Positions 10,392 to 45,338 of a DNA stretch of 45,338 nt are shown piece by piece. The stretch is from a virus (lineage: Duplodnaviria > Caudoviricetes). The notes under the pieces were generated by a model that worked only from the letters and a program-made list of their open reading frames with translations, was not told the origin of the DNA and did no database searches. Within the stretch, counting starts at the first letter, position 1. Every line of letters starts with the position of its first letter. Made by a program: the position numbers and the translations under genes. The DNA is taken from positions 1-45,338 of IMG/VR virus record IMGVR_UViG_3300032320_000535, one strand, 5' to 3'.

Positions 10392-13300
10392 ATGCCCATT
10401 CCTGAGCAATACCGCAAGCAACTTGAACAGCAACGGCAGTTGGCCGAAGTGCGTTCGCAGTTGAATAAGCAGTACGACAAGGAAATGTCTTCCCGATACA
10501 CCAAAGACATGCCCACCTTTGCTCAGTGGCTGGCCCAGCGTCAGCAATCCAAGGCCAAGGGCGGCTCTGTAATGGGCATCAACGTGGCCTCAGACCGCAA
10601 GTCAGACCGCAGGTACGCCGACATGATTGTTGACGGCCAAAAGACCCTTGAATCTCGCAACAGCGACACTCTGCGCCCCTATGTGGGCAAGCGCGTGGCA
10701 ATTGTAAGGACGGGCGAGGGCAAGGCTAAAGCAATTGGCGAAGTGACTGTTGGTGAGCCCATGGTGGTCAACAAGCAAAAGTTCCGGGCACTGGAAGACA
10801 AGCACCACGTTCCCGAAGGATCAGCATTTGACATTAACACGCCGACTAAGCACTTGTACCCCATGCATGACCCAATACGATACGATGAAGAACGTGACGT
10901 TGGCCATGGCATCGTGTCACGCAGGGTCATTGAGAGGGCCAAGGGTGGATCAGTGAAAGAGCCTAAAAAAAGCGTCAAGGCCTACAAGCTGTTCCGTGTC
11001 CACCCAGATCATCCCGGCAAACTGTTTCCGCTTTTCGTGGACGCCAACACGCCCGTCGAAATGAACAAGTGGGTGGACGCCAAAGAAGGCGAGATGGCCA
11101 ACGGCAAGGTCAAGTCCAAGATCGGCGCGCTTGCCTACCGTCCCGGCTGGCATGCTGGTGATCTACCCATCGCAACCCATATCGGTGAGAAGTCCGACCC
11201 CAAGCTGACCGCGCCCGACCGCCGTCCTGCCAACCATGCATGGGCTGAGGTAGAGATGCCTGATGACGTGGACTGGCAGGCCGAGGCCACCAAGCGCGGA
11301 ACCAACGCTGAAGGCAAGGTGGTGCCCGTCAAGGCCCACATCACCGACCAGATACCCAAGGGTGGCCACTACCGCTACAAGACCAACCCGAACATGACTG
11401 GCAACTGGCTGATCGGCGGGTCAATGAAGGTCAACAAGGTGCTCACCGATGCCGAGGTGGCGCGCATTAACAAGAGTGCTGGCATGTCTGATCTGCCACG
11501 CGCTGAACCGTTCAAGAAAAAGTCCTTTGGCTTTGCTCAGGGTGGCTGTGTTGCCCCTCATGAGTGGGCGGCCGAAGAGCATGTCAACTACAAATCAAAA
11601 GGTGGCGAAGTGAAATACGACAACCCATTCGACTACGAGAACCCTGACCACGTCGAGAACGTGGCCAACATTGTTGCCAAACACAAAGACTTCAACCAAA
11701 TCACCGACGTGGCCAAACACTTGGCCGACTCATTGTCCAAGGGCAATTGGAAGTTTGTTGAAGACCCACGAGTCCAAAAGGCTATCAAGCAAGCAGGCCA
11801 TGATGGCTACTTCGTTCGAGAGAAGGATGGCAAAGAGTCGCACGTAATGAAGAAAGCAGAAGGCGGCAACGTGCAACCATCACTGGCCCAAATGAAAATG
11901 GCGCTGGCTCAGAAGAGCAGTAGCGTTGACCTCAAGAGAATTGGAGTCAATGAGGCGCCCAACATGACGCCCAAGCACTTCTTCCCACCTGAGACCAGCG
12001 ACATTGGTCTGCCCAGCCCCGGCGGCGTAGCTACACCACGTGGCATGCCCATCGGTGGGATTGACATGAGCAAGATGCAGGGTGGCCAGCAACTGATGCC
12101 TACACCGCCCCAGCCCCAGCAAGGCGCGCCTGATCAACCACCCGGTGCTCCCGGTGGCCTGCCTGCTGGCGGCCCTCCCGGTGCGCCTCCGGGCGCCCCT
12201 GCTGGCCCAACACCGAGCATGGGCAACATGCTGTCCATGACGCCTCAGGGCCAGACCATGAATGCTCTGGGCGGCCAGAAGTTGGCCAAGGGTGGCCAGC
12301 CATCCATGGACGCCATGAAATCCGAGTTGGCCGCCAAGAAGGCGCCAGCAAGCGAAGCACAGGATGACGACGAGGAAGACACGCCAGCGCCAGCAAAACG
12401 CATCACGATCAAGGCCGAGGGCCCCGGTGGCGTGACTGGTATTGTTGTGCCCCACCACATGCTTCATGGCCGCAGTTGGGTCAACAAGAAGGGCAAGACG
12501 GTTGTGGTGCCCGGCATGAAGGACATCAACAAGGCACGTGCTGAGGTGTATGGCGCCGAGAACCGCGATCCACTGAGCCTTGGCCAGATCGGCAAGATTC
12601 ACAAAGACACGCTGACAGAGCACTTTGCCAAATCGCCTAAAGAGCAGTTGGATGCTGAGAAGGAGGCAACCCAGCGCCTGCGCAAAGCCAAGCACTTGGG
12701 CGCCAAGAACAACACGCTGGACGAGTCCGAGAAGCTGGACACCGTTCGCCACGAGACCGATGAGCAAGGCCGCACCCACGTGGGCTTTGCATCAAAGGGT
12801 GTAGCAGGCCACGCGCTGTACACATCGGGCCATGGCGACAACATGAAATACCACGTGATCAACACCTGCCCCGGCCAGACCGAAGGCTGTGGTGGTGGCA
12901 AGGACTCCAAAGGGGTTGTGGATACCAGCAAGGGCACATGCTTCGCGCCCAACGCTGAGTCGCAATATGTGCATGCCGCAGTGCGCCGTGCTACTCACGA
13001 GCAGGCCAAGCACGATCCCAAGATGACACGCGACTGGATTCTTGCCCACACTGGATCAATGCGTGACGCCGCTAAAAAGGCAGACAAGACCAACCAGCGC
13101 TTGCTGTTCCGTCCCAACGTGGTGGACGAGACCGACGTGTCTTCACGCCACGCCATCCGTCACTTGAACAATCAACGCAGGATGGAAGACAAGCCAGACA
13201 TCATTGCCAACTCATACGGCAAGACCAATGAGTTGCATGACCCTGAGAACGGCTACTACGTGACCCACTCAAACGTGGGCCCCAAGGTCAAGAAGGGCCA

Positions 13301-14216
13301 AGAGATTTCTGAGAACGTGGGGCGCGACAAAGCACGTGTGCGCAACACCGTGATGGCCGCCGATAACCGTGGCGATTTCAAGAACGAGCAGGGCAACAAG
13401 ACGCCGCCCAAAGGCTCGTACATGGTGACCGACGTCAAGCGCAACTCACCCATGTCCAAAAAGATGGAAGAGCACATCACTCACGCCAAGTACTGGACGA
13501 CAGGACGCTCTGAGAATGAGTTGTCGGCCGATGAGAAGGATGAAGGCCCAGAAGGCCACTTCAGCGGCTCTGGACGCAAAACAAGCGAAGACAAGGCCCA
13601 CTATGGTCACACGACTGTTGAGGGCAAACGCTTCGATTACCAGAAGCAACACATCCTGCACCCACGCTTGGTGAACGTGCCTATTCGCAAGAAGAACAAA
13701 AAGACTGGTGAGATGGAGACCAAGGATCACATGATCCCGACCGACTCACGCTTCAAAGACACCGAGTTCTTGCCGAAAGACAAGTACAAAACCAAGAACG
13801 GCAAAGACGCTGGCCACATCCTGATGACCACGCCTACCGAGTCAACCAGCAACATTGGCCACGAGACTTCGTTCACGCACAACGTGAATCAAAAGCACAT
13901 TGAGCACGCAATGAAGAACAACGGCGAGTATGAGATTGACAAGCCAGAAGATCAAATCAAAGCGGCAGGCAAAGAGTACCGCGCACCGCAGTCCATCAAG
14001 TTCTATGCAGAGGGCGGTCAAGTTGGTCGTCACCCGGCCATGGGACACGATGACTTCCACGCATTCCCTGAGCAAAATGGCATGGCCCAACGTCACCTGA
14101 CAATGCGCCACGGTGAAGATGAGACTAAAAACGTTGCCCAGAAAAAAGCTGTTGTCGTCCACAAGAATGTTGGGACAATGCGGCACGAGATGAGCATGAA
14201 CAAAAAGGCTAAATGA
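10392..14216 (+). CDS. large multi-domain (polyvalent-type) protein with an ASCH-like domain and a GP88-like Cys domain
   Basis: YADMIVDGQKTLESRN (ASCH GxKxxExR motif); TCPGQTEGC...CFAP...RPNVVDETD (GP88-like, tentative); segments separated by 7 xAxGG-like motifs. Confidence 0.7.
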   Translation: MPIPEQYRKQLEQQRQLAEVRSQLNKQYDKEMSSRYTKDMPTFAQWLAQRQQSKAKGGSVMGINVASDRKSDRRYADMIVDGQKTLESRNSDTLRPYVGKRVAIVRTGEGKAKAIGEVTVGEPMVVNKQKFRALEDKHHVPEGSAFDINTPTKHLYPMHDPIRYDEERDVGHGIVSRRVIERAKGGSVKEPKKSVKAYKLFRVHPDHPGKLFPLFVDANTPVEMNKWVDAKEGEMANGKVKSKIGALAYRPGWHAGDLPIATHIGEKSDPKLTAPDRRPANHAWAEVEMPDDVDWQAEATKRGTNAEGKVVPVKAHITDQIPKGGHYRYKTNPNMTGNWLIGGSMKVNKVLTDAEVARINKSAGMSDLPRAEPFKKKSFGFAQGGCVAPHEWAAEEHVNYKSKGGEVKYDNPFDYENPDHVENVANIVAKHKDFNQITDVAKHLADSLSKGNWKFVEDPRVQKAIKQAGHDGYFVREKDGKESHVMKKAEGGNVQPSLAQMKMALAQKSSSVDLKRIGVNEAPNMTPKHFFPPETSDIGLPSPGGVATPRGMPIGGIDMSKMQGGQQLMPTPPQPQQGAPDQPPGAPGGLPAGGPPGAPPGAPAGPTPSMGNMLSMTPQGQTMNALGGQKLAKGGQPSMDAMKSELAAKKAPASEAQDDDEEDTPAPAKRITIKAEGPGGVTGIVVPHHMLHGRSWVNKKGKTVVVPGMKDINKARAEVYGAENRDPLSLGQIGKIHKDTLTEHFAKSPKEQLDAEKEATQRLRKAKHLGAKNNTLDESEKLDTVRHETDEQGRTHVGFASKGVAGHALYTSGHGDNMKYHVINTCPGQTEGCGGGKDSKGVVDTSKGTCFAPNAESQYVHAAVRRATHEQAKHDPKMTRDWILAHTGSMRDAAKKADKTNQRLLFRPNVVDETDVSSRHAIRHLNNQRRMEDKPDIIANSYGKTNELHDPENGYYVTHSNVGPKVKKGQEISENVGRDKARVRNTVMAADNRGDFKNEQGNKTPPKGSYMVTDVKRNSPMSKKMEEHITHAKYWTTGRSENELSADEKDEGPEGHFSGSGRKTSEDKAHYGHTTVEGKRFDYQKQHILHPRLVNVPIRKKNKKTGEMETKDHMIPTDSRFKDTEFLPKDKYKTKNGKDAGHILMTTPTESTSNIGHETSFTHNVNQKHIEHAMKNNGEYEIDKPEDQIKAAGKEYRAPQSIKFYAEGGQVGRHPAMGHDDFHAFPEQNGMAQRHLTMRHGEDETKNVAQKKAVVVHKNVGTMRHEMSMNKKAK

Positions 14217-16669
14217 TGTCAGAACAAAATCCAGACGAAATCGGAATTGAAGAGCAAGAAGACGGCAGTGCGCTTGTCGATCTGCCTGAGATGGAGATGG
14301 AAGAGCAGGATGATGGATCGGCCATCGTCACGTTGGATGACGGCCCAGAGTTCAACCCTGAGTTCTACGACAACCTTGCAGACACCATAGACCCCAGCGA
14401 ACTAACAACGCTGGCGTTCAGGTACCTTGATCTACTTGAGACCGACAAAGAAGCAAGGTCACTGCGCGACAAGCAGTATGAAGAGGGCATCCGACGCACT
14501 GGCATGGGCAACGATGCTCCCGGCGGCGCCACCTTTATGGGCGCATCCAAGGTGGTTCACCCTGTCATGGCTGAGGGCTGTGTGGACTTTGCCAGCCGGG
14601 CCATCAAAGAGATGTTCCCGCCAGACGGCCCTGTCAAGACAAAGATTCTTGGCAAGATCGACGACCTCAAAACGTCCAAGTCAGAGCGCAAGCGCGACTA
14701 CCTGAATTGGCAGATCACCGACCAGATCGAAGAGTTCAAAGACGAGCAAGAGCAGTTGCTCACGCAGTTACCACTGGGCGGCTCACAGTACTTCAAGCTG
14801 TGGTTTGACGAGCAGAAGAAGCGCCCCTGCGTGGAGTTCTTGCCAATCGACCGGGTGATCCTGCCGTTTGCCGCAACCAACTTCTACACAGCCCAGCGCG
14901 CCGCTGAAGTCCACGAGATTACGCAGTACGAGTTTGAGCGACGCATCCGCACTGGCATGTACCGCGACATCAGCTACGTCAAAGCTTCTGGCACTCTGGA
15001 TCAAAACAAAGTTGAGCAGGCCAACAACAAGGTTGAGGGCAAGCAGTTTGAGGACAACAAGGATGGCCTGCGCAAGGTCTATCACATCTACTGCTACTTG
15101 GAGTTAGAAGACGACAAGAAGACCAAAGGCGACTACGCACCCTACATCATGATGGTCGATGAACTCGACAACCAAGTGGTGGGCCTGTACCGCAACTGGG
15201 AAGAGCAGGACGAAACCCGCACCAAGCTGGACTGGGTCGTCGAGTTCAAGTTCATCCCATGGCGCGGCGCTTATGCCATCGGGCTACCTCACCTCATTGG
15301 TGGCCTCAGCGCGGCCTTGACGGGTGCATTGCGCGCCTTGCTGGATACTGCGCACATCAACAACTCAGCCACCATGCTGAAGCTGAAGGGCGCCAAGATC
15401 AGTGGCCAGTCACAGCAGGTCGATGTCACCCAGATCATTGAGATCGAAGGCGCGCCCGGCGTACAGGACATTCGCCAGATTGCGATGCCTATGCCGTTCA
15501 ACCCACCCAGCCCCGTGCTGTTTGAGTTGCTGGGCTGGCTGGATACGGCCGCCAAGGGCGTGGTTACATCCTCTGAAGAGAAGATTGCCGACATCAACAG
15601 CAACGCGCCCGTGGGCACAACACAGGCTTTGATTGAGCAGGGCGCGGCGGTGTTCTCATCGATCCACGCACGCATGCACGACTCACAGGCCCGTGTGCTG
15701 AAGATTCTGTGCCGCCTAAACCGCTGGCACTTTGACGAGATGAAGAAGGGCGACGTCGTTGCTGAGTTGGAAATTAGCCGCGAAGACTTTGACAAGAACA
15801 CCGACGTGGTGCCCGTGTCTGATCCTCACATCTTCAGTGAGACTCAGCGGATGGCTCAGAACCAAGCCGTTCTGGCATTAGCTGAGAAGCACCCTGATCA
15901 GTTCAACATGAGCGCAGTATTGAGCCGCATGCTCAAGCAAATGAAGGTGCCAAACATCAATGAATTGATGAAAGACGTGCCAGCCCCAGAACAGCGTACA
16001 TCGGCCGACGAGAATGCCGCACTGCTCATTGGCCAACCAGCCTATGCGTATCTGCAACAGGATCACATTGCGCACATTCAGGATCACCTGCAATTTGCAC
16101 TCAATCCTTTCTTGGGCCAGTCGCCATTTGCAGACCCGGACTACCTCAACAACCTGATTGAGCACCTGAAGCAACACATGACCTTGTGGTACCTCAACCG
16201 CTCCAACGGCTACGTGGAGGACTCTGTGGGCAAGCCTGTGGACGACTACGACGATCCAGCACTCACGGCCACCATCGACAAGGTGTACACCACCGTGGGC
16301 GCGCACGTCATGCTCGATACCCAGCAAGTGTTTGGCCAGTTCCAGCAGGCACTTGGCCAACTCGTGCAGATGGCACAGCAACGCAAGAATGCACCGCAAG
16401 TGTTGCCGCCTGACGCGCAGGTGGTCAAAGACACCAACATGGCCGAAACACAGCGCAAGACTGTCAAGGATCAAGCCGACATTCAGTTGGCCAAAGATCG
16501 TTTGCAGAAGGACGCACAAGAACACCTTGATGACAATCAAACCAAGATTGCAATCGAGAATGCAAAATTGACGCATCAGACCATCCAACAGATGGCTCCT
16601 GCTCAACTACCTGCGGCACCTGCCGCGCCCTCAATGCCACCTCAAGGAGAACCAAATGGCAACATCTGA
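14216..16669 (+). CDS. portal protein
   Basis: About 817 aa, located between terminase and capsid genes; VHPVMAE, FKLWFD, GAYAIGL, TTQALIEQG and a Gln-rich helical tail resemble podoviral portals. Confidence 0.85.
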   Translation: MSEQNPDEIGIEEQEDGSALVDLPEMEMEEQDDGSAIVTLDDGPEFNPEFYDNLADTIDPSELTTLAFRYLDLLETDKEARSLRDKQYEEGIRRTGMGNDAPGGATFMGASKVVHPVMAEGCVDFASRAIKEMFPPDGPVKTKILGKIDDLKTSKSERKRDYLNWQITDQIEEFKDEQEQLLTQLPLGGSQYFKLWFDEQKKRPCVEFLPIDRVILPFAATNFYTAQRAAEVHEITQYEFERRIRTGMYRDISYVKASGTLDQNKVEQANNKVEGKQFEDNKDGLRKVYHIYCYLELEDDKKTKGDYAPYIMMVDELDNQVVGLYRNWEEQDETRTKLDWVVEFKFIPWRGAYAIGLPHLIGGLSAALTGALRALLDTAHINNSATMLKLKGAKISGQSQQVDVTQIIEIEGAPGVQDIRQIAMPMPFNPPSPVLFELLGWLDTAAKGVVTSSEEKIADINSNAPVGTTQALIEQGAAVFSSIHARMHDSQARVLKILCRLNRWHFDEMKKGDVVAELEISREDFDKNTDVVPVSDPHIFSETQRMAQNQAVLALAEKHPDQFNMSAVLSRMLKQMKVPNINELMKDVPAPEQRTSADENAALLIGQPAYAYLQQDHIAHIQDHLQFALNPFLGQSPFADPDYLNNLIEHLKQHMTLWYLNRSNGYVEDSVGKPVDDYDDPALTATIDKVYTTVGAHVMLDTQQVFGQFQQALGQLVQMAQQRKNAPQVLPPDAQVVKDTNMAETQRKTVKDQADIQLAKDRLQKDAQEHLDDNQTKIAIENAKLTHQTIQQMAPAQLPAAPAAPSMPPQGEPNGNI

Positions 16670-16841
16670 TCAAGAACAAAAAGGCCCAATGGTGCGTTAC
16701 CACGCCCGTATGGCACAAGGCGTCAAGCTGGACGGCCAGAGCCTAGAGCCCAAGGGTGGAAGCCAGCAAGGCAAGGGTGGCACCAGCCAGTCTTCCAAGC
16801 GCACTGGCGGCCTCTCTGGCGCCAAGAAATCTAATGCTTGA
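16656..16841 (+). CDS. small basic Gly-rich hypothetical protein
   Basis: AAGGAG RBS. Confidence 0.6.
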   Translation: MATSDQEQKGPMVRYHARMAQGVKLDGQSLEPKGGSQQGKGGTSQSSKRTGGLSGAKKSNA

Positions 16842-17013: not shown

Positions 17014-17090
17014 TAGCCCCACTCCGGGGTGAGACCGCGCTGACTAAGCGCATAACGATGCACCTGAGATATGGTGTTTAGGAGTTGATG

Positions 17091-17546: not shown

Positions 17547-17558
17547 CAGGAGGAATCA

Positions 17559-18533
17559 ATGGCTGATCCAAAAGAAAAGCAGGACGACCTTGCAGTAGTT
17601 GAGGAGCAAGATGGCTCCGCTGTGGTCGATTTACCTGAAAACATGCTTCAAGACGAAGTTCTTGAGGGAAAAGCGGAGGGTGGCAACGTTCGCGACGACG
17701 ATGCAGACCATCCAGATGACGATGATGAACTGCGTGCGGCAAAACGTGGCCGCCGCCGGGCCAAAAAAGACCTGATTCGCAAGACAAATCAGGAAAAAGA
17801 CGTCCGACTCACTCAACTCCAGCGTGAAAACGAGGAATTCAAGCGTCGTTTGGGCCAATTGGAGCGAAACACCAAGTCAGAGCACTTGGTTCGCATCGAC
17901 AAGGGCATTGAAGACGCTCAAACTCGCCTTGAGTACGCCAAAATGAAGCTGTCTGAGGCCACTCAGAACGGCGATGGCGAGGCGATGGTCGAGGCACAGA
18001 CCCTGTGGCAGGCCGCGCAAGAAGAAGCGCGCAATTTGCAGAGTTTGCGCCAGCAGGCCAACCAAGAGTTACAAAGTCCCAAGCAGGACAACGCTGATCT
18101 GCCTGATCCGCAGGTTCAGAAGCTGGCCGCGCAGTGGATGCGCCGCAATAAATGGTACAACCCGGCGGCTACAGACCCTGACAGCCGTATTGCCAAAAAG
18201 ATTGATGAGGTGATGTCAACTCAAGGCTGGAACCCGACCGATCCCGACTATTGGGACGAGTTAGACAGCCGCTTGCAAAGAGAGTTACCTCACCGCTACA
18301 ATGAAACCAATGACAACGAATCCCGTGATGTCAGACGACCAAGGAATGTTGTGGGAAGTGCAGGACGCGAGGCTTCGGCCGCTTATGGTGGTTCTAACCG
18401 CACCCAATTTGTTTTGTCCCCTGACCGAGTCAAGGCGATGAAAGAAGTAGGTGCTTGGGACAATCCTGAGCGCAAAGCACGAATGGTCAAGCAGTTCATT
18501 GAATTCGATCGTGTAAACGGTCGCCGCAACTAA
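17559..18533 (+). CDS. probable capsid scaffolding protein
   Basis: Acidic N-terminus and long coiled coil; lies upstream of the capsid genes. Confidence 0.6.
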   Translation: MADPKEKQDDLAVVEEQDGSAVVDLPENMLQDEVLEGKAEGGNVRDDDADHPDDDDELRAAKRGRRRAKKDLIRKTNQEKDVRLTQLQRENEEFKRRLGQLERNTKSEHLVRIDKGIEDAQTRLEYAKMKLSEATQNGDGEAMVEAQTLWQAAQEEARNLQSLRQQANQELQSPKQDNADLPDPQVQKLAAQWMRRNKWYNPAATDPDSRIAKKIDEVMSTQGWNPTDPDYWDELDSRLQRELPHRYNETNDNESRDVRRPRNVVGSAGREASAAYGGSNRTQFVLSPDRVKAMKEVGAWDNPERKARMVKQFIEFDRVNGRRN

Positions 18534-19725: not shown

Positions 19726-20640
19726 ATGGCCGCACCAATGCGCAGTACGGACTTCCGTTCCATCGTTGAACCAATTCTCAACGAGTGTTTTGACGGAGTC
19801 TATGATCAACGTGCCGACGAGTGGAGCCGTGTGTTCCGCGAAGAAGACGGCATTCCACGCAACTACCACGAAGAACCCGTCCTGTACGGTTTCGGAGCCG
19901 CACCTCAGTTGCCTGACGGTACGCCCGTAACCTATCAACAGGGTGGTGTGCTCTTCTTGAAACGCTACCTGTACAAGGTGTACGGTCTCGCTTTCGCCCT
20001 GACTAAAGTCTTGGTTGAAGACGGTGACCACATCCGTATCGGTCAGGTGTATGCACGTCACTTGGCTCAGTCTCTGGTGGAAACCAAAGAACTGTTGGCC
20101 GCGAACGTGTTAAACACTGCGTTCAACAGCGCCTTCCCCGGTGGCGACGGTGTGTCTTTGATTAACACATCGCACCCCATCGTTAACGGCACTTTCAGCA
20201 ACCAACTGGCTACCGCCGCCAACCTGTCCCAGACTTCTCTGGAGCAGATGTTGATCCAAATCCGTCAGGCTGTGGACAACAACGGCAAGAAGATTCGTCT
20301 GGTTCCACGTCAACTGATCGTGGCTCCCGGCAACATCTTCCAAGCTGAAGTTCTGCTGAAGTCTGTGCTACGTACAGGCAACGCAAACAACGACATCAAC
20401 CCCGTCAAGTCTATTGGCTTGCTGGACGAAGGTGCCGCTGTTCTGTCGCGTCTGACTTCGAGCACTGCATTCTGGGTTCAAACCGACGCTCCTGAGGGCT
20501 TCAAGCTACTCATGCGCCGTCGTTTGGAGAAGACCATGGAAGGCGACTTCGAGACCGACACAATGCGTTACAAGGCGACCGAGCGTTATGACCTCGGCTT
20601 CACCGACCCACGTTGCGCGTACGGTACTCCCGGCGTCTAA
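19726..20640 (+). CDS. major capsid protein (Mu gpT-like HK97 fold)
   Basis: 304 aa; GDGVSL...HP, LIVAPG, DFETDTMRYKATERY...DPR; strong RBS; followed by a terminator. Confidence 0.9.
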   Translation: MAAPMRSTDFRSIVEPILNECFDGVYDQRADEWSRVFREEDGIPRNYHEEPVLYGFGAAPQLPDGTPVTYQQGGVLFLKRYLYKVYGLAFALTKVLVEDGDHIRIGQVYARHLAQSLVETKELLAANVLNTAFNSAFPGGDGVSLINTSHPIVNGTFSNQLATAANLSQTSLEQMLIQIRQAVDNNGKKIRLVPRQLIVAPGNIFQAEVLLKSVLRTGNANNDINPVKSIGLLDEGAAVLSRLTSSTAFWVQTDAPEGFKLLMRRRLEKTMEGDFETDTMRYKATERYDLGFTDPRCAYGTPGV

Positions 20641-21970: not shown

Positions 21971-23482
21971 ATGGGTCAATTTAAACCAATGGTCAAAATG
22001 ATGACCGACGAGCCTTCAGTTATTCTGAAACTCAAAAAAGGCGGTAAGGTTGCTGTAAAAGGCGGCAAGGATAGCGGCCATAAAGCCATGTCTGGAGCCA
22101 ATCCTTTTGCCGAAGCTGAAAGTGGTATGGCTCCTAAAAAGCCATCCATGGCTGAACGTCGCAAGGCAATGAATCCAAACATGTATGCCAAAGGCGGCAA
22201 AGTCGCTCGCAAGCAAATGGGTGGTGGCATGCCTATGAATATGCCCGGTGCCATGCCCGGCGCTACAGCACCTGCTCCTGCGCCTATGCAGGCCATGGGC
22301 CGTCAGGCTCTGGCTGGTATGGCCCCTGCCCAGCGCATGAGGCGTGCCGCAATGGTCAAGCGCGCCATGAGTGGCATGAAGGACGGCGGCTCTGCTGAGT
22401 GCAAGGCTCTTGAGAAAGAGTTGAAGCACCACGAGTCCATGTCTGCCTCAAAGGCGCACGGCAAAGCCTCTGGCGGCTCAATCGACAAGGCAATGACCAA
22501 AACCACCATTGAAGGCAATGCTGGCAAGTACGCCAAGACCAAAATGGACACATCCAAGAAGGATCGCGCCCATGGTACTGGTGGCGTAAAAGAAGGCATG
22601 CCCGGCGGTTACGCCATGGGTGGCTCTATCATGGGCAACGAAAAGGCCTATGAGAAAACCAAGATGGTTACCGCAGGCAAGGGCAAGACTAGTGGTAGCA
22701 CTGGTGGCGTCAAGATGGGCAATGCAGGCGGCTTTAAAAGCGGCGGCAAAGTGCCCGGTCTTGGCAACGCAATTGAAGGTGGCAATTGGGAAAATCGTCC
22801 TGCCAATTCAGCCAAGCCCGGTGTTAAGAACACTACCACTGGTGGTGTGAAGAACGGCAACGGTGGCGGCTACAACATGGGAGGGCGTGCCTCAAAAAAA
22901 GCCTACGCGACGGGGGGAACTGTTGATACAGGCAAACCCGTCGCGATGCCACGCAAGCCTGTCTCGCGTCCGATAGCGAACAGCTTGCAGTCAGGCACTT
23001 TTGCCAAAGGCGGTAAGGTTGAGAAAGAGGAGAAGCCAAGCCTTCGGCTCATCAAGACCCATACCGGCCCCAAAGGTCATGTAGCAAAGGTTTATAAAGA
23101 CCGTGAATATGGTGAGCATCGTGTGAAATTCTTCAGTCCTGAAGGAAAACACATGACCAATGCTGACTACCACACCGATGACGTGAGCGATGCTCATGAC
23201 ACCGCTGAAGGTCAATTGAACCGCTACAAGATGGGTGGCAAAGCAAAAAAGTTTGACAGTGGCGGTTCTACCGATGACAAGTACTTTGTCAAAGACCCAA
23301 AGGCAACAGCCGACAAAGCAAGTCGCGAACTTGAAGAAGCGCTGAATCCTTTGAGTATGGTTAAGGAACTGGCTGGCAAAGCGAAGAACTACTTCATGCC
23401 CAAGGCTGACAGTGTGACCAAGACCAAAGAGTCTGTAACGGTCTCACCAGCAACTAAAAAGCGTGGCGGTGGCGCTTGTTAA
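21971..23482 (+). CDS. Lys/Gly/Met-rich low-complexity protein with about 13 xxxGG motifs, putative internal head protein
   Basis: LKKGG, YAKGG, KQMGG, MKDGG, KASGG, YAMGG, FKSGG, YNMGG, YATGG, FAKGG, YKMGG, FDSGG, KKRGG. Confidence 0.75.
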   Translation: MGQFKPMVKMMTDEPSVILKLKKGGKVAVKGGKDSGHKAMSGANPFAEAESGMAPKKPSMAERRKAMNPNMYAKGGKVARKQMGGGMPMNMPGAMPGATAPAPAPMQAMGRQALAGMAPAQRMRRAAMVKRAMSGMKDGGSAECKALEKELKHHESMSASKAHGKASGGSIDKAMTKTTIEGNAGKYAKTKMDTSKKDRAHGTGGVKEGMPGGYAMGGSIMGNEKAYEKTKMVTAGKGKTSGSTGGVKMGNAGGFKSGGKVPGLGNAIEGGNWENRPANSAKPGVKNTTTGGVKNGNGGGYNMGGRASKKAYATGGTVDTGKPVAMPRKPVSRPIANSLQSGTFAKGGKVEKEEKPSLRLIKTHTGPKGHVAKVYKDREYGEHRVKFFSPEGKHMTNADYHTDDVSDAHDTAEGQLNRYKMGGKAKKFDSGGSTDDKYFVKDPKATADKASRELEEALNPLSMVKELAGKAKNYFMPKADSVTKTKESVTVSPATKKRGGGAC

Positions 23483-24302: not shown

Positions 24303-24581
24303 ATGCCAAGCAAATCATCTTCTCAACACAATTTGATGGCGGCGGTCGCACATAACCCTGCGTTCGCCAAGAAGGTAGGCATCTCTCAAAAAGTCGGCAA
24401 AGAGTTTGCCAAGGCTGATGAGGGTAAAAAATTCAAAGGAGGCGGTCTCTATGACAACATCAATGCAAAACGCGAAAGAATCGCTGAAGGCTCTGGCGAA
24501 AAGATGCGGCGAGTGGGTAGCAAAGGTGCGCCAACGGCTCAAGCCTTCCAAGAGTCAGCCAAAACAGCCAAATCAAAATGA
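24303..24581 (+). CDS. small basic protein
   Basis: Lys-rich; central FKGGG motif. Confidence 0.7.
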   Translation: MPSKSSSQHNLMAAVAHNPAFAKKVGISQKVGKEFAKADEGKKFKGGGLYDNINAKRERIAEGSGEKMRRVGSKGAPTAQAFQESAKTAKSK

Positions 24582-24832
24582 GCAAGAAAAAAGTTAATCT
24601 TGCTGTTGGTCGCGGCGAGAAGTTGCCTGTTGAAAAAGGCGCTGGATTAACAGCCAAAGGTCGGGCAAAATACAACCGTGAAACTGGGAGCAATTTGAAG
24701 GCGCCACAGCCTCAAGGCGGTAGCCGCAAGGACTCGTTTTGCGCTCGCATGTCAGGCGTTGTGGAGCACTCTAAAGGGGATGCACCTCGCGCTAAGGCTT
24801 CGTTAAAACGCTGGAATTGCCCCGGCTGGTAA
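24578..24832 (+). CDS. small basic protein
   Basis: GLTAKGRAKYN...RKDSFCARM...SLKRWNC. Confidence 0.7.
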   Translation: MSKKKVNLAVGRGEKLPVEKGAGLTAKGRAKYNRETGSNLKAPQPQGGSRKDSFCARMSGVVEHSKGDAPRAKASLKRWNCPGW

Positions 24833-24844: not shown

Positions 24845-25309
24845 ATGGAATACAGTCCTTTTGCAAAAATCAACAAATCTCCAAAAGAGAAGCAAGCATT
24901 GATTGATGCACCACCACGCAAGCAACAAGCGGATAAGCCAATCATCAAAGAAGTAAGCCCCCATGTTCGGATTGTCAAAACAGGCTCGGGCATGAAGCCG
25001 GGCGACAATCTTGAAATACATGAGAAGGTTGGCGATGACTGGAAAAAACATTGGGGCACCAATGAGATGTCCAATGACATGGCTTCGACTGAAATAAGAG
25101 AAAAAGCCGAGGCTCTTGCAAAAAAGCGTGCGCAAGAGAAAACAAAAAAAATGCCTGTGCAGAGTTTTGAAAAAGAAAAAGCTGAACACGGCTACCTGAG
25201 TGTTCCCCAGCGCCAAAAACTCATTGAAAGCGGCGAGTACAAGGGCTACTTGAAAAAAGGTGGGAAAGTATCAACTCGCACCTCAAGCAATAAAAAGTCA
25301 AGCTGGTAA
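24845..25309 (+). CDS. basic hypothetical protein with C-terminal LKKGGKV motif
   Basis: AAGGA RBS; Lys-rich. Confidence 0.65.
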   Translation: MEYSPFAKINKSPKEKQALIDAPPRKQQADKPIIKEVSPHVRIVKTGSGMKPGDNLEIHEKVGDDWKKHWGTNEMSNDMASTEIREKAEALAKKRAQEKTKKMPVQSFEKEKAEHGYLSVPQRQKLIESGEYKGYLKKGGKVSTRTSSNKKSSW

Positions 25310-26374: not shown

Positions 26375-26880
26375 GCGCCGCCATCTATTGGATTCGCTCA
26401 AAAGAACACACTGACATTACCTGCCAAGGGTACGTCGGAGTGGCTAAGAACGCCTCCAAAAGATGGTGGGGACACAAGTGGGCACTCAAGGCTGGGCGTC
26501 ACGATAATCCACTTTTGTCCAATGCGGTCAACAAGCATGGGTGGGACAACTTGGTCAAAGAGATTGTGCTTATTGCCGATGAGCAATATTGCTACGACAT
26601 TGAAAACAAATTGCGCTCAGAGTCAAAAATTGGTTGGAATTTAGCGGTTGGCGGGTGCAAGCCACCAGTCAGCAAATCACGTGGCCCTGACTATGTTAGC
26701 CCCTTGAAGGGCGTGTCACGCCCAACGCCATGGCTCGTCGGAAGAGAAAAGCCAATGCCTGAAGATTTTTTTAGCAAAGGCGGTAAGGCTGGCAAAGGGC
26801 GCAAGCAAACGCCTGAGCAAATTGCCAAGCGCGTTGCCTCTCGTCGTGCCACATTGGCGGCACAAGGGAGGACTGTTTAA
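26371..26880 (+). CDS. free-standing GIY-YIG homing endonuclease with a NUMOD3-like tail
   Basis: AIYWI...YVGV...RWWGH...E...GWN; C-terminal KGRKQTPEQIAKR. Confidence 0.8.
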   Translation: MSAAIYWIRSKEHTDITCQGYVGVAKNASKRWWGHKWALKAGRHDNPLLSNAVNKHGWDNLVKEIVLIADEQYCYDIENKLRSESKIGWNLAVGGCKPPVSKSRGPDYVSPLKGVSRPTPWLVGREKPMPEDFFSKGGKAGKGRKQTPEQIAKRVASRRATLAAQGRTV

Positions 26881-38891: not shown

Positions 38892-39133
38892 TGATCAGTT
38901 ACGATCCTCGTGGCATGACTTGGGATCAGTACTGCAAACTGATGGCCGAGTTGTTTGCCCCTAACCAGTTGGGGTATGTAGAAGAAGAAAACTGGCGGCA
39001 CTGGGTTGATGGCTTGAGTGGCATTGGGTACTTCTCTGAATCAGGAATACCTAGCCACCAAGGCTTTGAACACTGGTACCAATGGGCCGAACAAATGTGC
39101 GGCATTTTGAGTGTGACTGTGGGGGAAATATGA
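38891..39133 (+). CDS. small Trp-rich hypothetical protein
   Basis: TAATG coupling to the nozzle gene; ATGA coupling to the ACP gene. Confidence 0.7.
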   Translation: MISYDPRGMTWDQYCKLMAELFAPNQLGYVEEENWRHWVDGLSGIGYFSESGIPSHQGFEHWYQWAEQMCGILSVTVGEI

Positions 39134-39411
39134 ACTTTCTTGATTTGCTCAACATGGTGGCGCGTGAGGCACGTCCTGCGCACCATGGGCTCAGTCCTAT
39201 AACGGATATGGAGACGCCGTTCACAGAGACTGAAATTGACTCACTTGATGGCCTGATGATCGTCATGTTCATGTCCATCATTTACAACATTGAAGACGAT
39301 CTGGTGAAAGACTTTCACCCAGAGACGCCACAGCAGTTGTTTGACTTCCTCGAACAGCACAAGACCCGTGACCCGGCGTCAATCGAAGAAGCCAAGGAGA
39401 TGATCAAATGA
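39130..39411 (+). CDS. acyl carrier protein
   Basis: 93 aa, acidic; EIDSLD phosphopantetheine motif (Ser38, codon at 39241) followed by a helix, then I.DD...T..QLFDFL. Confidence 0.85.
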   Translation: MNFLDLLNMVAREARPAHHGLSPITDMETPFTETEIDSLDGLMIVMFMSIIYNIEDDLVKDFHPETPQQLFDFLEQHKTRDPASIEEAKEMIK

Positions 39412-40523
39412 TCTATCTCAGCGACTACCGACTGGCGCACACAACAAACACCAAACTCTTGGAAGACATTCGCCACCCTCAGATGGTGAATTGGTTTTCA
39501 GAGTCCTACGAGAAAGTCAAGACTGGCCTGTTTTACCCTCCGCACCGGGTTGCCGACAAAGTGATTGATCAGGCCTTGGCCAAGACACTTCGTGAGGACA
39601 CCGAAGCCAAGACCGCCTTCATTTTGGCGGCTGGCAATGGTCACTTTGCAGGCATCAACGCCGTCAAGTCCGAACCCAACACGCTGACCTACGAATACAA
39701 GTTCCTGCCCCTGACGCTGACTCAGGTCTACGCCGGGCGTACCGCTCAGGTCTTTGGTGCGGCAGACCACATAGTGACCGACTCTACGGCCTGCGCATCC
39801 AGCATGAAGGTGCTCATGGACGTTCAGACCCTAATGCGCTTTTATGGGTTCAACCGGGTGATCGTGCTGGCCATTGAAGATCAGGTCAGCAACCTGACAT
39901 TGAACTTTTTTGGCGAAGCACAGGCCTCGCTGGTCTGGAAAGACGAAAAAGAGGGTGTCAAGCCATCGGCCTTTGACAGTGTCAACGGCGGCTTCCACGT
40001 TGGCCAAGGCGCCTGTTTGGCGGTGTTTGAGGATGCAGTGACGGTCAAGCGCCGTGGAATCACCCCCAAGGGCCGCCTTTTAGGGGCCTACACGGCCTCG
40101 GAGACCTGCGCCAATGCCATCGGCCAGACTGAGGACGGCGAAGGCTTTGTGAAGGCCGCAAAGGGCGCTCTGGACATGGCCAAATTGACCCCGGCATGCG
40201 TTTCGGTGATCAAAACCCATGGCACGGGCACCAAATCCAATAACCGGGCTGAGAGGGCGGCCATTGAATCGACGTTCACGGACTTTGTGGCCACCTCGTA
40301 CAAGCAGGTGATTGGTCACACTATGGGCGTGAGCGGCTTGCTTGAAACCTGCATGTTGATCGACAATATGACAAATGGGTTTGTGCCAAGCATTCCAAAC
40401 AGAACAGAAGAGGACGATGTGTTCCTGTCGCACGACATTGAGGCTCCCAAAGGAGCCATTTTGTCATTGGCGGCTGGCATGGGGAACGTTTACTCGGCCG
40501 CAGTAATGACAACGGAGTTATGA
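39408..40523 (+). CDS. beta-ketoacyl-ACP synthase (FabB/FabF-like), divergent
   Basis: STACASS (Cys129), SAFD...GFHVGQGA, KTHGTGT (His271), KQVIGHTMG (His304). Confidence 0.92.
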   Translation: MIYLSDYRLAHTTNTKLLEDIRHPQMVNWFSESYEKVKTGLFYPPHRVADKVIDQALAKTLREDTEAKTAFILAAGNGHFAGINAVKSEPNTLTYEYKFLPLTLTQVYAGRTAQVFGAADHIVTDSTACASSMKVLMDVQTLMRFYGFNRVIVLAIEDQVSNLTLNFFGEAQASLVWKDEKEGVKPSAFDSVNGGFHVGQGACLAVFEDAVTVKRRGITPKGRLLGAYTASETCANAIGQTEDGEGFVKAAKGALDMAKLTPACVSVIKTHGTGTKSNNRAERAAIESTFTDFVATSYKQVIGHTMGVSGLLETCMLIDNMTNGFVPSIPNRTEEDDVFLSHDIEAPKGAILSLAAGMGNVYSAAVMTTEL

Positions 40524-40524
40524 A

Positions 40525-40959
40525 ATGCAAGTAGATTCAAAAAACCAGAAACTTGACTCAGGCCAAATCATCGGCATTTTTTTGAAAAACAATAAACAGC
40601 CTCACCCCCCTGAGGTGATGATCCCTGCCATTCTGGATGAATTGAATCAGCCAAACACTGAGGTCAAACAATTTGGCAACACATTGTTTGAAGTTCATAA
40701 AGGCAAGGATGGCCAAGGATTCTTTAAGGCGTTTAATGCCGACACGGGCGCCAACTTCGTAGAGAACAGCAAAGTGTTTGCTGTATGGGCAAAGCGAGTG
40801 CTTGGCCTCAAAATTATAGTCACAGAATATTCTGACGAATCCCTTGATCGTTTGTTCAAGTTGATTGCGTTCAACCCACCAATGCCCGGCATGGGCTATC
40901 AAGTATTCAAAGCAAAAGACGGCAAAACAACTCGTGTTGCTTTGAATTTAGGAGCCTGA
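40525..40959 (+). CDS. hypothetical alpha/beta protein, candidate acyltransferase
   Basis: The ORF is clear; the function is inferred only from its size and its position between the KAS and internal protein genes. Confidence 0.4.
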   Translation: MQVDSKNQKLDSGQIIGIFLKNNKQPHPPEVMIPAILDELNQPNTEVKQFGNTLFEVHKGKDGQGFFKAFNADTGANFVENSKVFAVWAKRVLGLKIIVTEYSDESLDRLFKLIAFNPPMPGMGYQVFKAKDGKTTRVALNLGA

Positions 40960-40960
40960 T

Positions 40961-42874
40961 ATGTCAGCAGTAGTCAATGCAGTCAGCAGTGTTTTTGAGG
41001 CAGTTGGCGACGCTGTCGGTGATATTGCCGAGGGCATTGGTGACGTTGTAGAAACGGTTGTTGAAGAAGTTGTTGAGCCTGTTGTCAAAGCAGTAGGCAA
41101 CACAATTGATGCGGCAATGAAAGACCCGATTGGCACGATTGCCAAGGTTGCCACGGCTATTTATGCGCCGTACCTTTTGCCAGTTGTAAATTTTGGTGTG
41201 TCTGTTGCAAATGGCGCTTCGATTGAAAAAGCGATTGGCAATGCGGCCTTGAGTTATGTGGGCGGTCAAATTGGACAGGGCATTGGCGACTACGCATCAG
41301 AAGCGTTTGAATTGGGTGATGCCGCAAGCAACATAGTGACCGCAGGTGCCAAGGGCGCAACGTCCTCGACCCTGAGAGGTGAAAATCCTTTGTGCGGTGC
41401 TATTGGTGCTGTGGCCAATAATTTAATCAACACTGGCGCAAACGCGCTGTACAAGTGCCTTAGCACTTCAGGTGGCGGCAATACCACGCAAGAGGGTGGC
41501 CTTCCCGTAACTGTCAATGGTGCGGTTAATGATTGCACGGTTGGTTGTGCATCGACCACCGAACTCGGTGCTTTGCCTACTGTCACTCCACCACAAATTA
41601 ACGAAGAGCCCGTTGAAGTCAATGCTTCTGGTTATGACTGTTGCCGCCTAAACGAGGGTGTGCCCTCATTGCCACCAGTTGAAGTGAACGCCTCCGGTTA
41701 TGACTGCTGTCGCCTAAACGACGAAGTTCCTGCGCTTTCACCAGTTGAGGTGGATGCTTCACCTTACGACTGCTGTCTTTTAAACGAAGGAGTAGAGCCG
41801 CTTGATTGCTGTTGCGCGGCCTGTGAGTGCGAAAAAACTCCCGGATTTAAGTTCCCAAGGATCAAACTTCCAAACATTAATTTTTCAAAGAACAATGCTT
41901 CAAGGGCTGGTGCCCCAAAGACCAGCGCAGTGCAAACTGTTGGATCGAGTGGCGGCCTTGGTTGCGGCGCGATCCCATGGCTGGATACAAGAGACTCAAT
42001 GTTGCGCAACCAGATTTCTTTTGACAAGCCTACCGAAGCAACGGCCGATCAAACCAAGTTGCGCGACATCTACGGCCGCATGGATACATGCTTGGCCAAA
42101 GAGATGCAAGACCGCTATGGTGGCGTGCCCCAGATTAACCTTAAACCGTTTGGTGAACCTATGAGTGGATTGGCACAAGTTGGTAATTTTGCAGGTGGCG
42201 GCACAACCGGAACATCGAGTTGTGTGGCAAGTTGCTCATTTGCGTATTGCTACAACCAAGACGCCAAGTACATGCCAAAGTTTGTGTCGTGTGGCCCAGA
42301 CGTTTTGACAAATTCTGCCGCAAGCAAGCGCCAGCCTTTGACGCATAAGCAGTTGACTCATTTGCAACAGCGCATCTCCAACATGGGCAACATGGGTGGC
42401 TTGGCCGCTGGCGGCTTGCCCAAGAAGTACCAAGATGCAATGCCTAAAGATCACAACCCACAGTTTGTGACTGGCATGACCGGGTACTACGCTTGCGGTG
42501 GCGGCACGGGTCAGTCTGACGACATCTCGGCGATGCTCCATGATGGTGACTATGTGATGGACGCTGACGTTGTGGCGGCTCTGGGTGATGGCTCCAGCAA
42601 GGCTGGGCGCGAAGTCCTTGACGGGTTCCGCAGTCAGATTAATCACAAGGAGACATCAAAGGGCCAACCAGTACCAGCCAAGATCGCGGATGGCGAGTAC
42701 GTATTCCCAGAAGGTTTTGTTTCAGCCCTCGGTGGTGGCGACAACAAGGCGGGTGCAAAAATTCTGGACGGTTTGCGTGAGAAGTTGCGCGCACACAAAA
42801 GATCGGCACCCACAAGTAAAATACCACCCAAGGCGAAATCCCCACTTGACTACATCAAGCAGGCGAAAGGTTAA
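40961..42874 (+). CDS. Cys-rich putative internal virion/ejection protein
   Basis: Amphipathic and Gly/Ala-rich N-terminus, 22 Cys, duplicated C-terminal DG(D/E)YV motif. Confidence 0.65.
   Translation: MSAVVNAVSSVFEAVGDAVGDIAEGIGDVVETVVEEVVEPVVKAVGNTIDAAMKDPIGTIAKVATAIYAPYLLPVVNFGVSVANGASIEKAIGNAALSYVGGQIGQGIGDYASEAFELGDAASNIVTAGAKGATSSTLRGENPLCGAIGAVANNLINTGANALYKCLSTSGGGNTTQEGGLPVTVNGAVNDCTVGCASTTELGALPTVTPPQINEEPVEVNASGYDCCRLNEGVPSLPPVEVNASGYDCCRLNDEVPALSPVEVDASPYDCCLLNEGVEPLDCCCAACECEKTPGFKFPRIKLPNINFSKNNASRAGAPKTSAVQTVGSSGGLGCGAIPWLDTRDSMLRNQISFDKPTEATADQTKLRDIYGRMDTCLAKEMQDRYGGVPQINLKPFGEPMSGLAQVGNFAGGGTTGTSSCVASCSFAYCYNQDAKYMPKFVSCGPDVLTNSAASKRQPLTHKQLTHLQQRISNMGNMGGLAAGGLPKKYQDAMPKDHNPQFVTGMTGYYACGGGTGQSDDISAMLHDGDYVMDADVVAALGDGSSKAGREVLDGFRSQINHKETSKGQPVPAKIADGEYVFPEGFVSALGGGDNKAGAKILDGLREKLRAHKRSAPTSKIPPKAKSPLDYIKQAKG
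41609..41806 (+). repeat. 3 x 66-bp in-frame tandem repeat encoding PVEVxASxYDCCxLN
   Basis: Units start at 41609, 41675 and 41741. Confidence 0.9.
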
Positions 42875-42876
42875 AA

Positions 42877-44346
42877 ATGGCAAACTTACTGCAATCCTCG
42901 CAAAACAAACAAACAACGGCGCCGGGTTATTACACCGACTACCTGACCAACCTTGCAAGCAAGGGTCAAACAGCCGCTGATCAGGCGCAGTTTGTAGGGG
43001 CCCAGCCTCTGCAAGAAAAGGCCTTCTCAGAGGTCTGCCAGAACTTTGGCAACCAGCAGGCAAGCATTGCCGCAGGCAAGGGTCTTGTTGGCCAAGCCGC
43101 CAACCAAAATGTCACGGGCGCGGCGGCACCATACCTACAAGCGGGAACCGGCGCCAGTCCACTGAACGCCATGGCTCCTTATGCCGAAACGGCCATGGGC
43201 ACGACTGGCTACGAGGCTGGTGTTCCACTTGTCACTCAGGGCGCAAGCAAATCAGGTTTGTGCGCCGCTAATCCGTACCTCCAGCAAGCCACAAGCACCA
43301 GCCCTGCTGACTTGGCCGCTTCCTACATGAACCCGTTTCTCAAGACGGCCGTTCAATCGATGTCAGACATTGCCCAGCGTAATATCCGTCAGAACCTGTC
43401 GCCTGCGGCGGCGGCGGCGGCAGTGGGCTCTGGCCAGTTTGGTTCACAGCGCGGTGCTCAGGTGCAAGGTCAGATCACTGCTCAGGCACAACAAGACCTG
43501 AATAACCAGATCGCCCAGATGATGGCTTCGGGTTACGGACAGGCCTTATGCGCCGCTGGCAAGCAAAACGCACTGGTGGCCAACGCAGGCAACACTGCTG
43601 GCGCGCTGACCAACCAGACCGCTCAGAACCAAATCAATGCAGGTACAAATCTTGGCAGTTTGCAACAGGGTGCAAACCAAATTGCGGCGGGTCTTGGATC
43701 GACTGCGGCACAGGCGCAAGCACAACAGAACCAAGCCAACCTCACTGCGGCACAGACTGCGGCGACTGCGGCGGCAAACCAAGGCCAGTTGCTCAATGCG
43801 GCTGGCACCAATATGGGCAACTTGGCACAGACTGGTGCCAACATGAACTTGGCCTGCATCAACGCGCTATCTACCCTTGGTGGCCAGCAACAAACAATTG
43901 GACAGAACGAGCAGAACTACCCGCTCACCAAGTTGCAATCGCTTGGAAGCCTGCTCCAAGGCTACAGCATCCCGACTGGCACAAGGACTACTTTGTGCAT
44001 GTCTCCATTGTCTGGCGCGGCCGCTTTGGGCGCCGCTGGCAAAGCCGCAATCACATGCTTCCCCAGCATCAAAACTGGCCTTGGAGACATCATTGGTCGA
44101 ATGGGTGGCGGTGGTGGTAGTAGCGGTGGTGGCAACAACTCAAGCGGGTGCGACATCAACGGCTTATGCCTTCCATGTTGCGCAGGTGATTTACCTGAAG
44201 AATTAGGAGAGTGCTACTCCTACTGTTGCTGTTGCTGTTGCATCTGCTTAGAAGCAGAAGGCGGCTTGATCAAATCCAAGGCACGTGGCTTCAAGGGTTG
44301 TGCATCCACTTATTCACGTGGCGCACTGCCATCGAAGAAAGGTTAA
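42877..44346 (+). CDS. Gln/Ala/Gly-rich putative DNA ejection protein with a poly-Cys tail
   Basis: YMNPF, GQFGSQRG and QAG-rich helices typical of podoviral pilot proteins; 19 Cys including CCCCCC. Confidence 0.7.
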   Translation: MANLLQSSQNKQTTAPGYYTDYLTNLASKGQTAADQAQFVGAQPLQEKAFSEVCQNFGNQQASIAAGKGLVGQAANQNVTGAAAPYLQAGTGASPLNAMAPYAETAMGTTGYEAGVPLVTQGASKSGLCAANPYLQQATSTSPADLAASYMNPFLKTAVQSMSDIAQRNIRQNLSPAAAAAAVGSGQFGSQRGAQVQGQITAQAQQDLNNQIAQMMASGYGQALCAAGKQNALVANAGNTAGALTNQTAQNQINAGTNLGSLQQGANQIAAGLGSTAAQAQAQQNQANLTAAQTAATAAANQGQLLNAAGTNMGNLAQTGANMNLACINALSTLGGQQQTIGQNEQNYPLTKLQSLGSLLQGYSIPTGTRTTLCMSPLSGAAALGAAGKAAITCFPSIKTGLGDIIGRMGGGGGSSGGGNNSSGCDINGLCLPCCAGDLPEELGECYSYCCCCCCICLEAEGGLIKSKARGFKGCASTYSRGALPSKKG

Positions 44347-44349
44347 TTC

Positions 44350-45338
44350 ATGGCTACTCCAGAACGTAAAACACAGGACTACAGCTTTGCTGGTGGTCTT
44401 GGAAATATTAACCCTGCTGAGATGCCACCAGAGTCAATTGAAAAGTACAGAACAACTCTGGATGAGCAAATTCAAGCACTGCAAAAGCGCTACGAAGAGC
44501 CGAACTATTGGAAGGTGGCCGCTGGGTTTGCGAAGCCGCAACTCGGTGGTTTTCTTGCGTCTCTTGGTAGCGCATCAGAGGCCATGGGTGAGAACGTTGA
44601 GCGCCAGCGTGAACAGCAATTGCCCATCGCACAGATGAAGGTGCAGATGGAGCAGGCCAACATGCTGTTGTCTCAAAAGCAAAAGCAAAACGAAATCTAT
44701 CAAGAGTGGCTGGCCAAGAACACCGGGCCTGATGGCAAAGTTGCTCCAATGGATGCAACGACGTACAGCCGCATCACATCACTGGGTGACAGCACGCCTG
44801 TTGCAAATGCCGCCAAGGCCTATTACGAAGGCGCACAGCAGGGTTTAAACATCAAAACTGCGGCTGTTACGGCGATGGGCAAAGACCCATTGATGGATTT
44901 GGACGACTTTGCAAAGTTTCAATTAAGCGGAAACGCAGATTCCAGAGCAGGTCAGGCCAAACAAGTTAAGTTTGAGAAAGCGCTTGAAGAAGGCCGTCCT
45001 CCACAAATTGATTTAGCGCAATGGGCAACCATGGGCCGGTACGAGAAGATGGATCAGGCGGCCGCTTATGCAAAAGAAATGCGCGAGAAGGGTATGGGCA
45101 TCGAAGAGGTCATGCGTCAGCGCGCAGATAGCGCGCCAGATCGCTTGAAGTTGCTTGGCTCCATACGCGACCTGTCTTTGGGTGTTGGTCTTGCAGAATC
45201 TACAACCCCAGAGGGCAAAAAGATCAGCGGCCAAGAACAAATTGGCGCGTTACTCAACAAGTTCGGCGGCAACAATCCGATGGAAGTGTTTGCACGTGCG
45301 GCGGCCGATGGCAAGTTGGGCGAAACGCTCAGAGACAT
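44350..45338 (+). CDS. partial putative internal virion protein (runs off the window)
   Basis: ATG 44350, open to the window end (MATPERKTQDYSFAGG...); absent from the track because there is no stop codon. Confidence 0.8.
   Translation, partial: MATPERKTQDYSFAGGLGNINPAEMPPESIEKYRTTLDEQIQALQKRYEEPNYWKVAAGFAKPQLGGFLASLGSASEAMGENVERQREQQLPIAQMKVQMEQANMLLSQKQKQNEIYQEWLAKNTGPDGKVAPMDATTYSRITSLGDSTPVANAAKAYYEGAQQGLNIKTAAVTAMGKDPLMDLDDFAKFQLSGNADSRAGQAKQVKFEKALEEGRPPQIDLAQWATMGRYEKMDQAAAYAKEMREKGMGIEEVMRQRADSAPDRLKLLGSIRDLSLGVGLAESTTPEGKKISGQEQIGALLNKFGGNNPMEVFARAAADGKLGETLRD

Follow-up and report, generated by a model that had tools for sequence, protein, structure and literature searches.

The head proteases of T4 (gp21) and phiKZ (gp175) cut after Glu, read the residues that precede the bond and process capsid proteins, and a second group of enzymes, adenain, S273R of African swine fever virus (ASFV) and the C39 peptidases, recognizes hydrophobic-x-Gly-Gly and then cuts. 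A different short code recurs in the 45,338 nucleotides (nt) of tailed-phage DNA (Duplodnaviria; Caudoviricetes) of IMG/VR record IMGVR_UViG_3300032320_000535, positions 1 to 45,338, the whole of which is called the window here. The code is the motif X-[Ala/Lys]-x-Gly-Gly-x-[Val/Ile/Ala], and it marks the junctions and C-termini of likely internal proteins, including a swappable protein of polyvalent type. Its enrichment, its restriction to proteins other than those of the shell, its position at junctions and the cut made by T5 at the same motif make it a likely cutting site, and the bond that is likely to be cut, by whatever enzyme, is X|Ala/Lys, before the Ala or Lys.

The closest described systems are found in three other phages. 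The tape-measure protein pb2 of the siphophage T5 has a published cut after R1127 (PMC10038345), with intact masses of 121,683 and 9,702 Da obtained without trypsin (PMC11937500); in the available parts of the T5 papers (PMC10038345, PMC11937500, PMC11937520) the motif is not described and no enzyme is named. The cleavage of lambda gpH was first reported in 1974 and gives fragments of about 78 and 14 kDa on gels, with both the site and the catalyst still called unknown in a 2025 paper (PMC12617516). In crAss001, gp45 (cargo protein C1, PF25725) is seen as a portal-bound piece, residues 425-552, and a tail-located piece, residues 214-245, about 420 Å apart, and the text available for that study, including its mass spectrometry methods and peer-review file, mentions neither cleavage, nor protease, nor proteolysis (PMC10172136). 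Polyvalent proteins, which combine several unrelated, swappable effector domains in variable order and are likely packaged, resemble the window proteins in organization; processing by zincin MPTase or assemblin domains has been proposed for them, and glycine or diglycine is not mentioned in the accessible part of that paper (PMC5512222). The motif itself is not described in the open-licence literature searched (PMC, bioRxiv).

The window, a linear virus record, is estimated to be about 82% complete. Pfam and PHROG scans find in it genes for terminase, portal, GroES, capsid, tail and two SU10-type adaptors, and after them three likely ejection genes, a layout that suggests a podophage. Open reading frames (ORFs) are named below by their first nucleotide, and those of the motif-bearing proteins, the portal, the capsid and the DUF6321 protein all lie on the plus strand. 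Since the strict form of the motif, [FYMLKR][AK]xGGx[VIA], was drawn from the window itself, related loci provide the fairer test. In the 65 window ORFs it occurs 17 times against 1.14 expected, with a maximum of 5 in 500 per-protein shuffles that preserve composition. Enrichment over such a background, which an earlier note on this DNA had proposed as a check, was confirmed in 160 related loci, 80 around capsid relatives and 80 around relatives of the end of ORF 40961, which are close kin (capsids 89-99% identical) and not independent samples. There the excess is 6- to 60-fold in four families of likely internal proteins, with 117 strict sites against 2.0 expected in 38 relatives of 10392, 574 against 9.1 in 69 relatives of 21971, 54 against 6.7 in 80 relatives of 40961 and 21 against 3.5 in 78 relatives of 42877; a further 90 (3.9 expected) fall in 202 unassigned head-region proteins.

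The shell proteins, by comparison, are free of it. No strict site occurs in 80 capsids, 61 portals, 63 GroES proteins or 72 relatives of 18551, nor in the relatives of 19111, the adaptors or the fibres of these loci, and 154 minus-strand proteins of the relatives have none against 1.1 expected. The window portal (14213..16669) and major capsid protein (19726..20640) thus serve as motif-free negative controls, and the 23 early ORFs of the window (2,739 amino acids, aa) likewise contain no site, which bears out the earlier note, in which the motif had not been noticed in the early genes or the major capsid protein. Two loose matches fall in ORFs of the window that do not encode cargo, 26371 and 32047, and in the 36618 family a conserved R-K-I-G-G inflates the loose count (58 against 19.4 expected; strict, 2 against 2.7). 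The parallel that had been drawn with T4 and phiKZ holds in that one short code is shared by many internal proteins, but the window-phage capsid and portal families lack the strict site, unlike those of T4, HK97 and phiKZ. The information in the window motif also lies mostly after the bond, in contrast to T4 gp21 and phiKZ gp175, and the Pfam and PHROG scans, of 32 and 30 window proteins, found no protease gene of that kind; the earlier note had likewise recognized no prohead protease in the window.

Around the Gly pair, information is concentrated three residues before the first Gly (Tyr, Lys, Phe, Met, Leu), two before it (Ala, Lys) and two positions past the pair (Val, Ala, Ile, Met). Over 23 window sites the codons vary freely with the residues kept, and therefore selection acts on the protein. 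This argues against the motif being a DNA-level recombination joint or a low-complexity linker with no protein function; such a joint would account for the coincidence of the sites with module swaps, but not for an excess over shuffles that preserve composition, nor for the recurrence of the motif in unrelated phages and at a measured cut, and it is hardly credible.

The position of the motif within proteins was examined with homology blocks, which span 19% of the motif sites (125, not mutually independent) as compared with 64% of other Gly-Gly pairs (260) and 65% of random positions. Seen from the blocks, 44% of their 581 internal ends have a motif no more than 25 aa away, compared with 17% for random placement. 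The motif is present in 56 of 59 proteins encoded ahead of the portal gene, of which the window example is a modular, 1274-aa cargo protein (10392..14216). Its seven sites, at nt 10551, 10935, 11532, 11592, 11853, 12282 and 14004, are all where the earlier note had placed them, and most of its block ends fall near residues 54, 182, 381-407 and 488. Cutting at these sites is predicted to give the pieces 1-54, 55-182 (ASCH), 183-381 (phrog_30118), 382-401, 402-488, 489-631, 632-1205 (GP88-like) and 1206-1274. Between sites, ASCH and GP88-like domains are found in the window and ART-PolyVal, PcfJ and PBECR5 in relatives; a Pfam scan of 71 segments or proteins gave a match for 13 and none for 58, and MPTase, MuF and assemblin domains were absent from it. 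A site falls within the final 25 aa in 86 of the 207 motif-bearing proteins that are complete, and within the first 19 aa in just 3, where 47 would be expected at either end; Met-Ala-x-Gly-Gly starts, considered as mimics of cut products, were set aside on the latter count.

A C-terminal bias of this kind, together with tandem copies spaced 8-12 aa apart, would suit multivalent binding, and hence a motif that is a packaging tag only, bound by a C-terminal module of ORF 40961 (described below) or by the portal to load cargo, with the module-adjacent site cut and the distant sites left intact. The crAss001 domain is indeed seen bound to the portal (PMC10172136), and the measured cut is module-adjacent. 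However, a tag has no need of sites inside proteins between exchangeable domains, the same modules are encoded as separate ORFs in relatives, and in gp45 the two pieces, about 420 Å from each other, belong to different segments bounded by motifs. A pure tag is accordingly given a minority share of belief, about that of a plausible but unlikely alternative. The earlier note had left maturation site and packaging tag side by side; a shared maturation site on head cargo has gained from the enrichment in internal proteins, the module junctions and the T5 cut, with cutting the likelier of the two in the window phage itself.

The register of the cut, before Ala, was written down from crAss001 gp45 ahead of any look at T5. 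Like the likely first ejection protein of the window (ORF 40961), gp45 is an ejection-type cargo. Its portal-bound piece begins at A425-F-G-G and is over by A560, the next site, and motif sites A207 and A261 enclose the piece located in the tail. The short form [AK]xGG occurs 9 times in gp45 against 2.3 expected and once in 14 other proteins (11,450 aa), and the motif is confined to gp45 among the 21 proteins examined, which distinguishes crAss001 from the window phage. T5 is the sole out-of-sample test with a measured bond. The sequence at the T5 cut is V-P-R|A-E-G-G-M-M, so that the bond precedes Ala and does not follow Gly-Gly, and the masses computed for a cut at R1127, 121.68 and 9.70 kDa, match those published; [AK]xGG occurs at only 3 sites in this 1219-aa protein, that is, at 3 of about 1,200 bonds. 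All five distant T5-like or related proteins keep the Arg, the Gly pair (Ser-Gly in one) and GE-x-G-x-E, and four of the five keep the Ala. As in the window phage, a short conserved acidic module follows; pb2 differs in being a siphophage tail protein with one cut, where the window has 25 sites in seven likely head-internal proteins. In lambda gpH, F-A-T-G-G stands where the published sizes require it, and the motif F733|ATGG gives computed fragments of 79.6 and 12.5 kDa, a match that rests on gel masses; the cut that converts gpH to gpH* is predicted at F733|A734. The available literature on JBD30, DT57C, phi24B, Sf11, TP901-1, Xop411 and marine phage proteomes yielded no further measured site, and the DT57C paper reports no conserved motif among tape-measure C-fragments.

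The same data bear on the suggestion, made by the earlier note in analogy with the enzymes of adenovirus and ASFV and with C39 peptidases, that the chain is cut after the Gly pair by a cysteine protease of one of these kinds. The invariance of Gly-Gly is what would be expected of such an enzyme, but the hydrophobic-x-Gly-Gly rule is not followed: the position two before the first Gly is Ala or Lys in 812 of 952 sites and Met, Ile or Leu in 40. In addition, the measured T5 cut precedes Ala, A425-F-G-G is continuous with the resolved crAss001 domain, and Pfam finds no such enzyme among 32 window proteins. The analogy was dropped, a cut after Gly-Gly being very improbable.

The best candidate for a protease is the C-terminal part of ORF 40961, which encodes the likely first ejection protein (40961..42874; sites FAGGG at nt 42188 and LAAGG at nt 42401, of which 78 of 80 relatives retain the second). 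Residues 482-637 (42404..42874) form a two-repeat module, with the cores L-H-D-G-D-Y-V and I-A-D-G-E-Y-V, in which D530 and E579 are invariant in 71 sequences. A/K-x-G-G stands directly upstream of a G-E/D-hydrophobic core in the window, RW, Pag-Yong1, F116 and MW202675, and in RW, Pag-Yong1 and F116 the motif runs directly into the module. The YACGG at nt 42488, which the earlier note had counted as a site, is part of the module, and only about 52 of 80 relatives retain its second Gly. The module tracks with the motif across ten genomes, the window included, some of them partial and compared without tree correction. Four capsid relatives with no detectable module (CRP-901, QDWS535, MW202785 and MW202796) have 0-1 sites with 0.8-1.2 expected, and MW202675, which encodes the module as a stand-alone 193-aa gene, has 15 against 2.1. 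That gene (L178:8103-8684) consists of a short N-terminal domain and two repeats, with a motif ahead of each repeat. The module profile, which matches 10,712 clusters at 50% identity, also matches the Douge tape-measure protein (E 8.6e-5), and a weak match to lambda gpH is in register, just past FATGG, with columns shared by phrog_3547 and phrog_24.

Whether this module is itself the enzyme is evenly balanced in our view: the proposal is that it cuts the motif at X|Ala/Lys, at its own upstream site and then on cargo. The module would first free itself at L481|A482 and would recognize the residues that follow the cut; because in relatives with a single repeat this site runs straight into the module, the cargo motifs may mimic the module's own first strand. 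Inside the prohead it would be docked on the portal, a possible binding site by analogy with crAss001 only, and would bind cargo through the motif, trimming C-terminal tags, releasing from the 1274-aa protein the effector domains to be injected and reducing a 503-aa protein (ORF 21971) to basic peptides.

The same bond might instead be cut by a host protease or by another phage protein, with the module in a structural role. The module has no protease fold, a 1973 T5 paper, known by its title only, reports host involvement in tail-protein cleavage, and with the genome 82% complete and the relatives' remaining ORFs outside the Pfam scan there is room for another enzyme. Yet the motif is found in phages of E. 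coli, Bacteroides, Caulobacter and Pseudomonas, and in genomes that share the head genes but lack the module it is at background; the motif-free CRP-901 encodes a weak relative of ORF 18551 (33.9 bits), and ORF 18551 gave no fold match. Another enzyme is improbable, though less so than a cut after Gly-Gly. Known proteases were not found in the Pfam and PHROG scans, which covered 32 and 30 window proteins, respectively; the window capsid matches the C-terminal portion, and no more, of two protease-capsid fusion profiles. Of the protease candidates the earlier note had listed, the 40961 C-terminus emerged as the best, but the other two gave nothing: the model of 18551 (predicted local distance difference test, pLDDT, 67) had no fold match, with hypothetical clusters only in Atlas, and 40525 matched no Pfam family and has no clear link to the GNATs that match its slot (E 0.07-0.6).

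Several points weigh against cutting by the module. Each repeat is small (about 55 aa), with neither a protease fold nor a known catalytic motif, and in a model of fair quality (pLDDT 79) the docking of its own motif has low confidence (pLDDT 46, residues 1-10). Foldseek gave no match to this model in the PDB at E 0.001 and only uncharacterised proteins in a viral library, the best match in the VIA wide fold search had Z 3.1, and 7qog was not among the matches of the fold searches. The match to lambda, the best among 34 ORFs, is weak at E 0.03; with the unit profile neither the T5 nor the crAss001 module came up, PHROG gave no bridge, and the likenesses to these two were drawn by eye. When diverse T5 modules were sought, all the proteins retrieved were nearly identical. 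PF25725, which matches crAss001 gp45 itself at 2e-66, gave no match to ORF 40961 at E up to 10, and the Atlas link of the 40961 end to crAss cargo protein 1 is a weak lead (0.84; 101 of 256 features). RW, HTVC023P, F116 and Pag-Yong1 bear the module and have 3-6 motif matches, not clearly above chance, and about 18% of the genome is absent from the window.

With regard to the cut itself, measured cleavage at the motif has been published for T5 only, outside the family of the window phage, and the T5, lambda and crAss001 A425 sites are all module-adjacent, with little bearing on distant sites. R1127 of pb2 is also a trypsin site, and an older report places the cut at V1148 (PMC11937520); the later T5 authors answer both objections (PMC11937500). 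The crAss001 authors connect the two gp45 pieces by an intact linker (PMC10172136), and the start of the model at A425 may simply reflect the onset of order. As a separate observation on pb2 (residues 1143-1148), V1148 lies directly past the second conserved Glu of the module.

A broader proposal is put forward tentatively, with somewhat more doubt than belief, namely that the module is a small, hitherto undescribed peptidase found alike in the ejection proteins of podophages, in the tape-measure proteins of siphophages and in cargo protein 1 of crAssviruses. It would cut X|[A/K]-x-G-G, be the catalyst of lambda gpH and T5 pb2 maturation and make crAss001 gp45 a polyprotein, having become in the lineage of the window phage a general enzyme that serves to load and release injected effectors through a seven-residue tag. 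The catalytic role of the module, its homology to the T5 and crAss001 modules and the cut in the window phage are all inferred from the comparisons given above. For lambda gpH the motif points to one precise bond (F733|A734) and to E755 as a candidate residue, and it offers for crAss001 a simpler reading of a structure in which parts of gp45 lie 420 Å apart. If true, one could predict injected cargo from the sequences of a large family of phages (about 2,500 database stretches match the capsid), and the motif could be put to use as a short tag by which proteins are loaded into phage heads and released. The stand-alone module gene of MW202675 would be the simplest construct in which to look for activity.

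The remaining motif-bearing proteins of the window are smaller or less regular in their sites. The 503-aa Gly/Lys-rich protein (21971..23482) has 12 sites, the last of them 7 aa before its end; the earlier note's figure of about 13 was close, the pattern [FYMLKR][AKD]xGG giving 11, and YNMGG a twelfth, among 23 Gly-Gly runs. Its predicted products are basic peptides of 0.6-8.5 kDa, and 201 of 660 site spacings in its family are 12 aa or less. The first 21 residues (21971-22030), ahead of the first site, are strongly conserved in relatives and are possibly a capsid-binding arm. The likely scaffold (17559..18533), so assigned from position and composition, has an optional site (KAEGG, nt 17670) present in 11 of 70 relatives. 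In the 92-aa protein (24303..24581) the site F|KGGGLY (nt 24432) joins halves 1-44 and 48-92, each of which matches a different PHROG family, and the 154-aa protein (24845..25309) has the C-terminal site L|KKGGKV (nt 25250). The DUF6321 protein (24578..24832) has no site in the window, and 46 of its relatives have 43 loose sites against 8.7 expected. The likely second ejection protein (42877..44346) bears E|AEGGLI (nt 44251) 30 aa before its end, and 49 of 67 relatives have [AK]xGG within the last 45 aa. All these single sites had been listed by the earlier note; the FAGG it recorded in 44350 fell away, with 0 strict sites against 1.7 expected in 64 relatives. Many motif-tagged proteins (window 23482, 24832 and 25309; related loci) terminate in Cys, Cys-Trp, Gly-Trp or Asn-Trp shortly past the last site.

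The window capsid is 77% identical to that of Caulobacter phage RW and about 40% identical to those of HTVC023P and CRP-901. A phage GroES (17085-17546) lies within the head module of the capsid relatives examined, with or without the motif, and a GIY-YIG homing endonuclease (26371-26880), of which 5 of the 80 capsid-centred loci carry one, is inserted 3' of the first adaptor gene. Directly 5' of the first ejection gene, positions 39082-40959 encode an acyl-carrier-like ORF, a ketoacyl synthase (PF00109/PF02801, Cys-His-His motifs present) and a 144-aa ORF; all three co-occur in 11 of 73 spanning loci, the slot holds an annotated GNAT in related phages, and the cluster may serve in acylation of an ejection protein. 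The two likely ejection proteins (40961-44346) are Cys-rich, at 3.5% and 3.9%, and Cys is at least 3% in 32 of 80 and 48 of 78 of their relatives, reaching 8.7% among the synthase-bearing loci and not limited to them.

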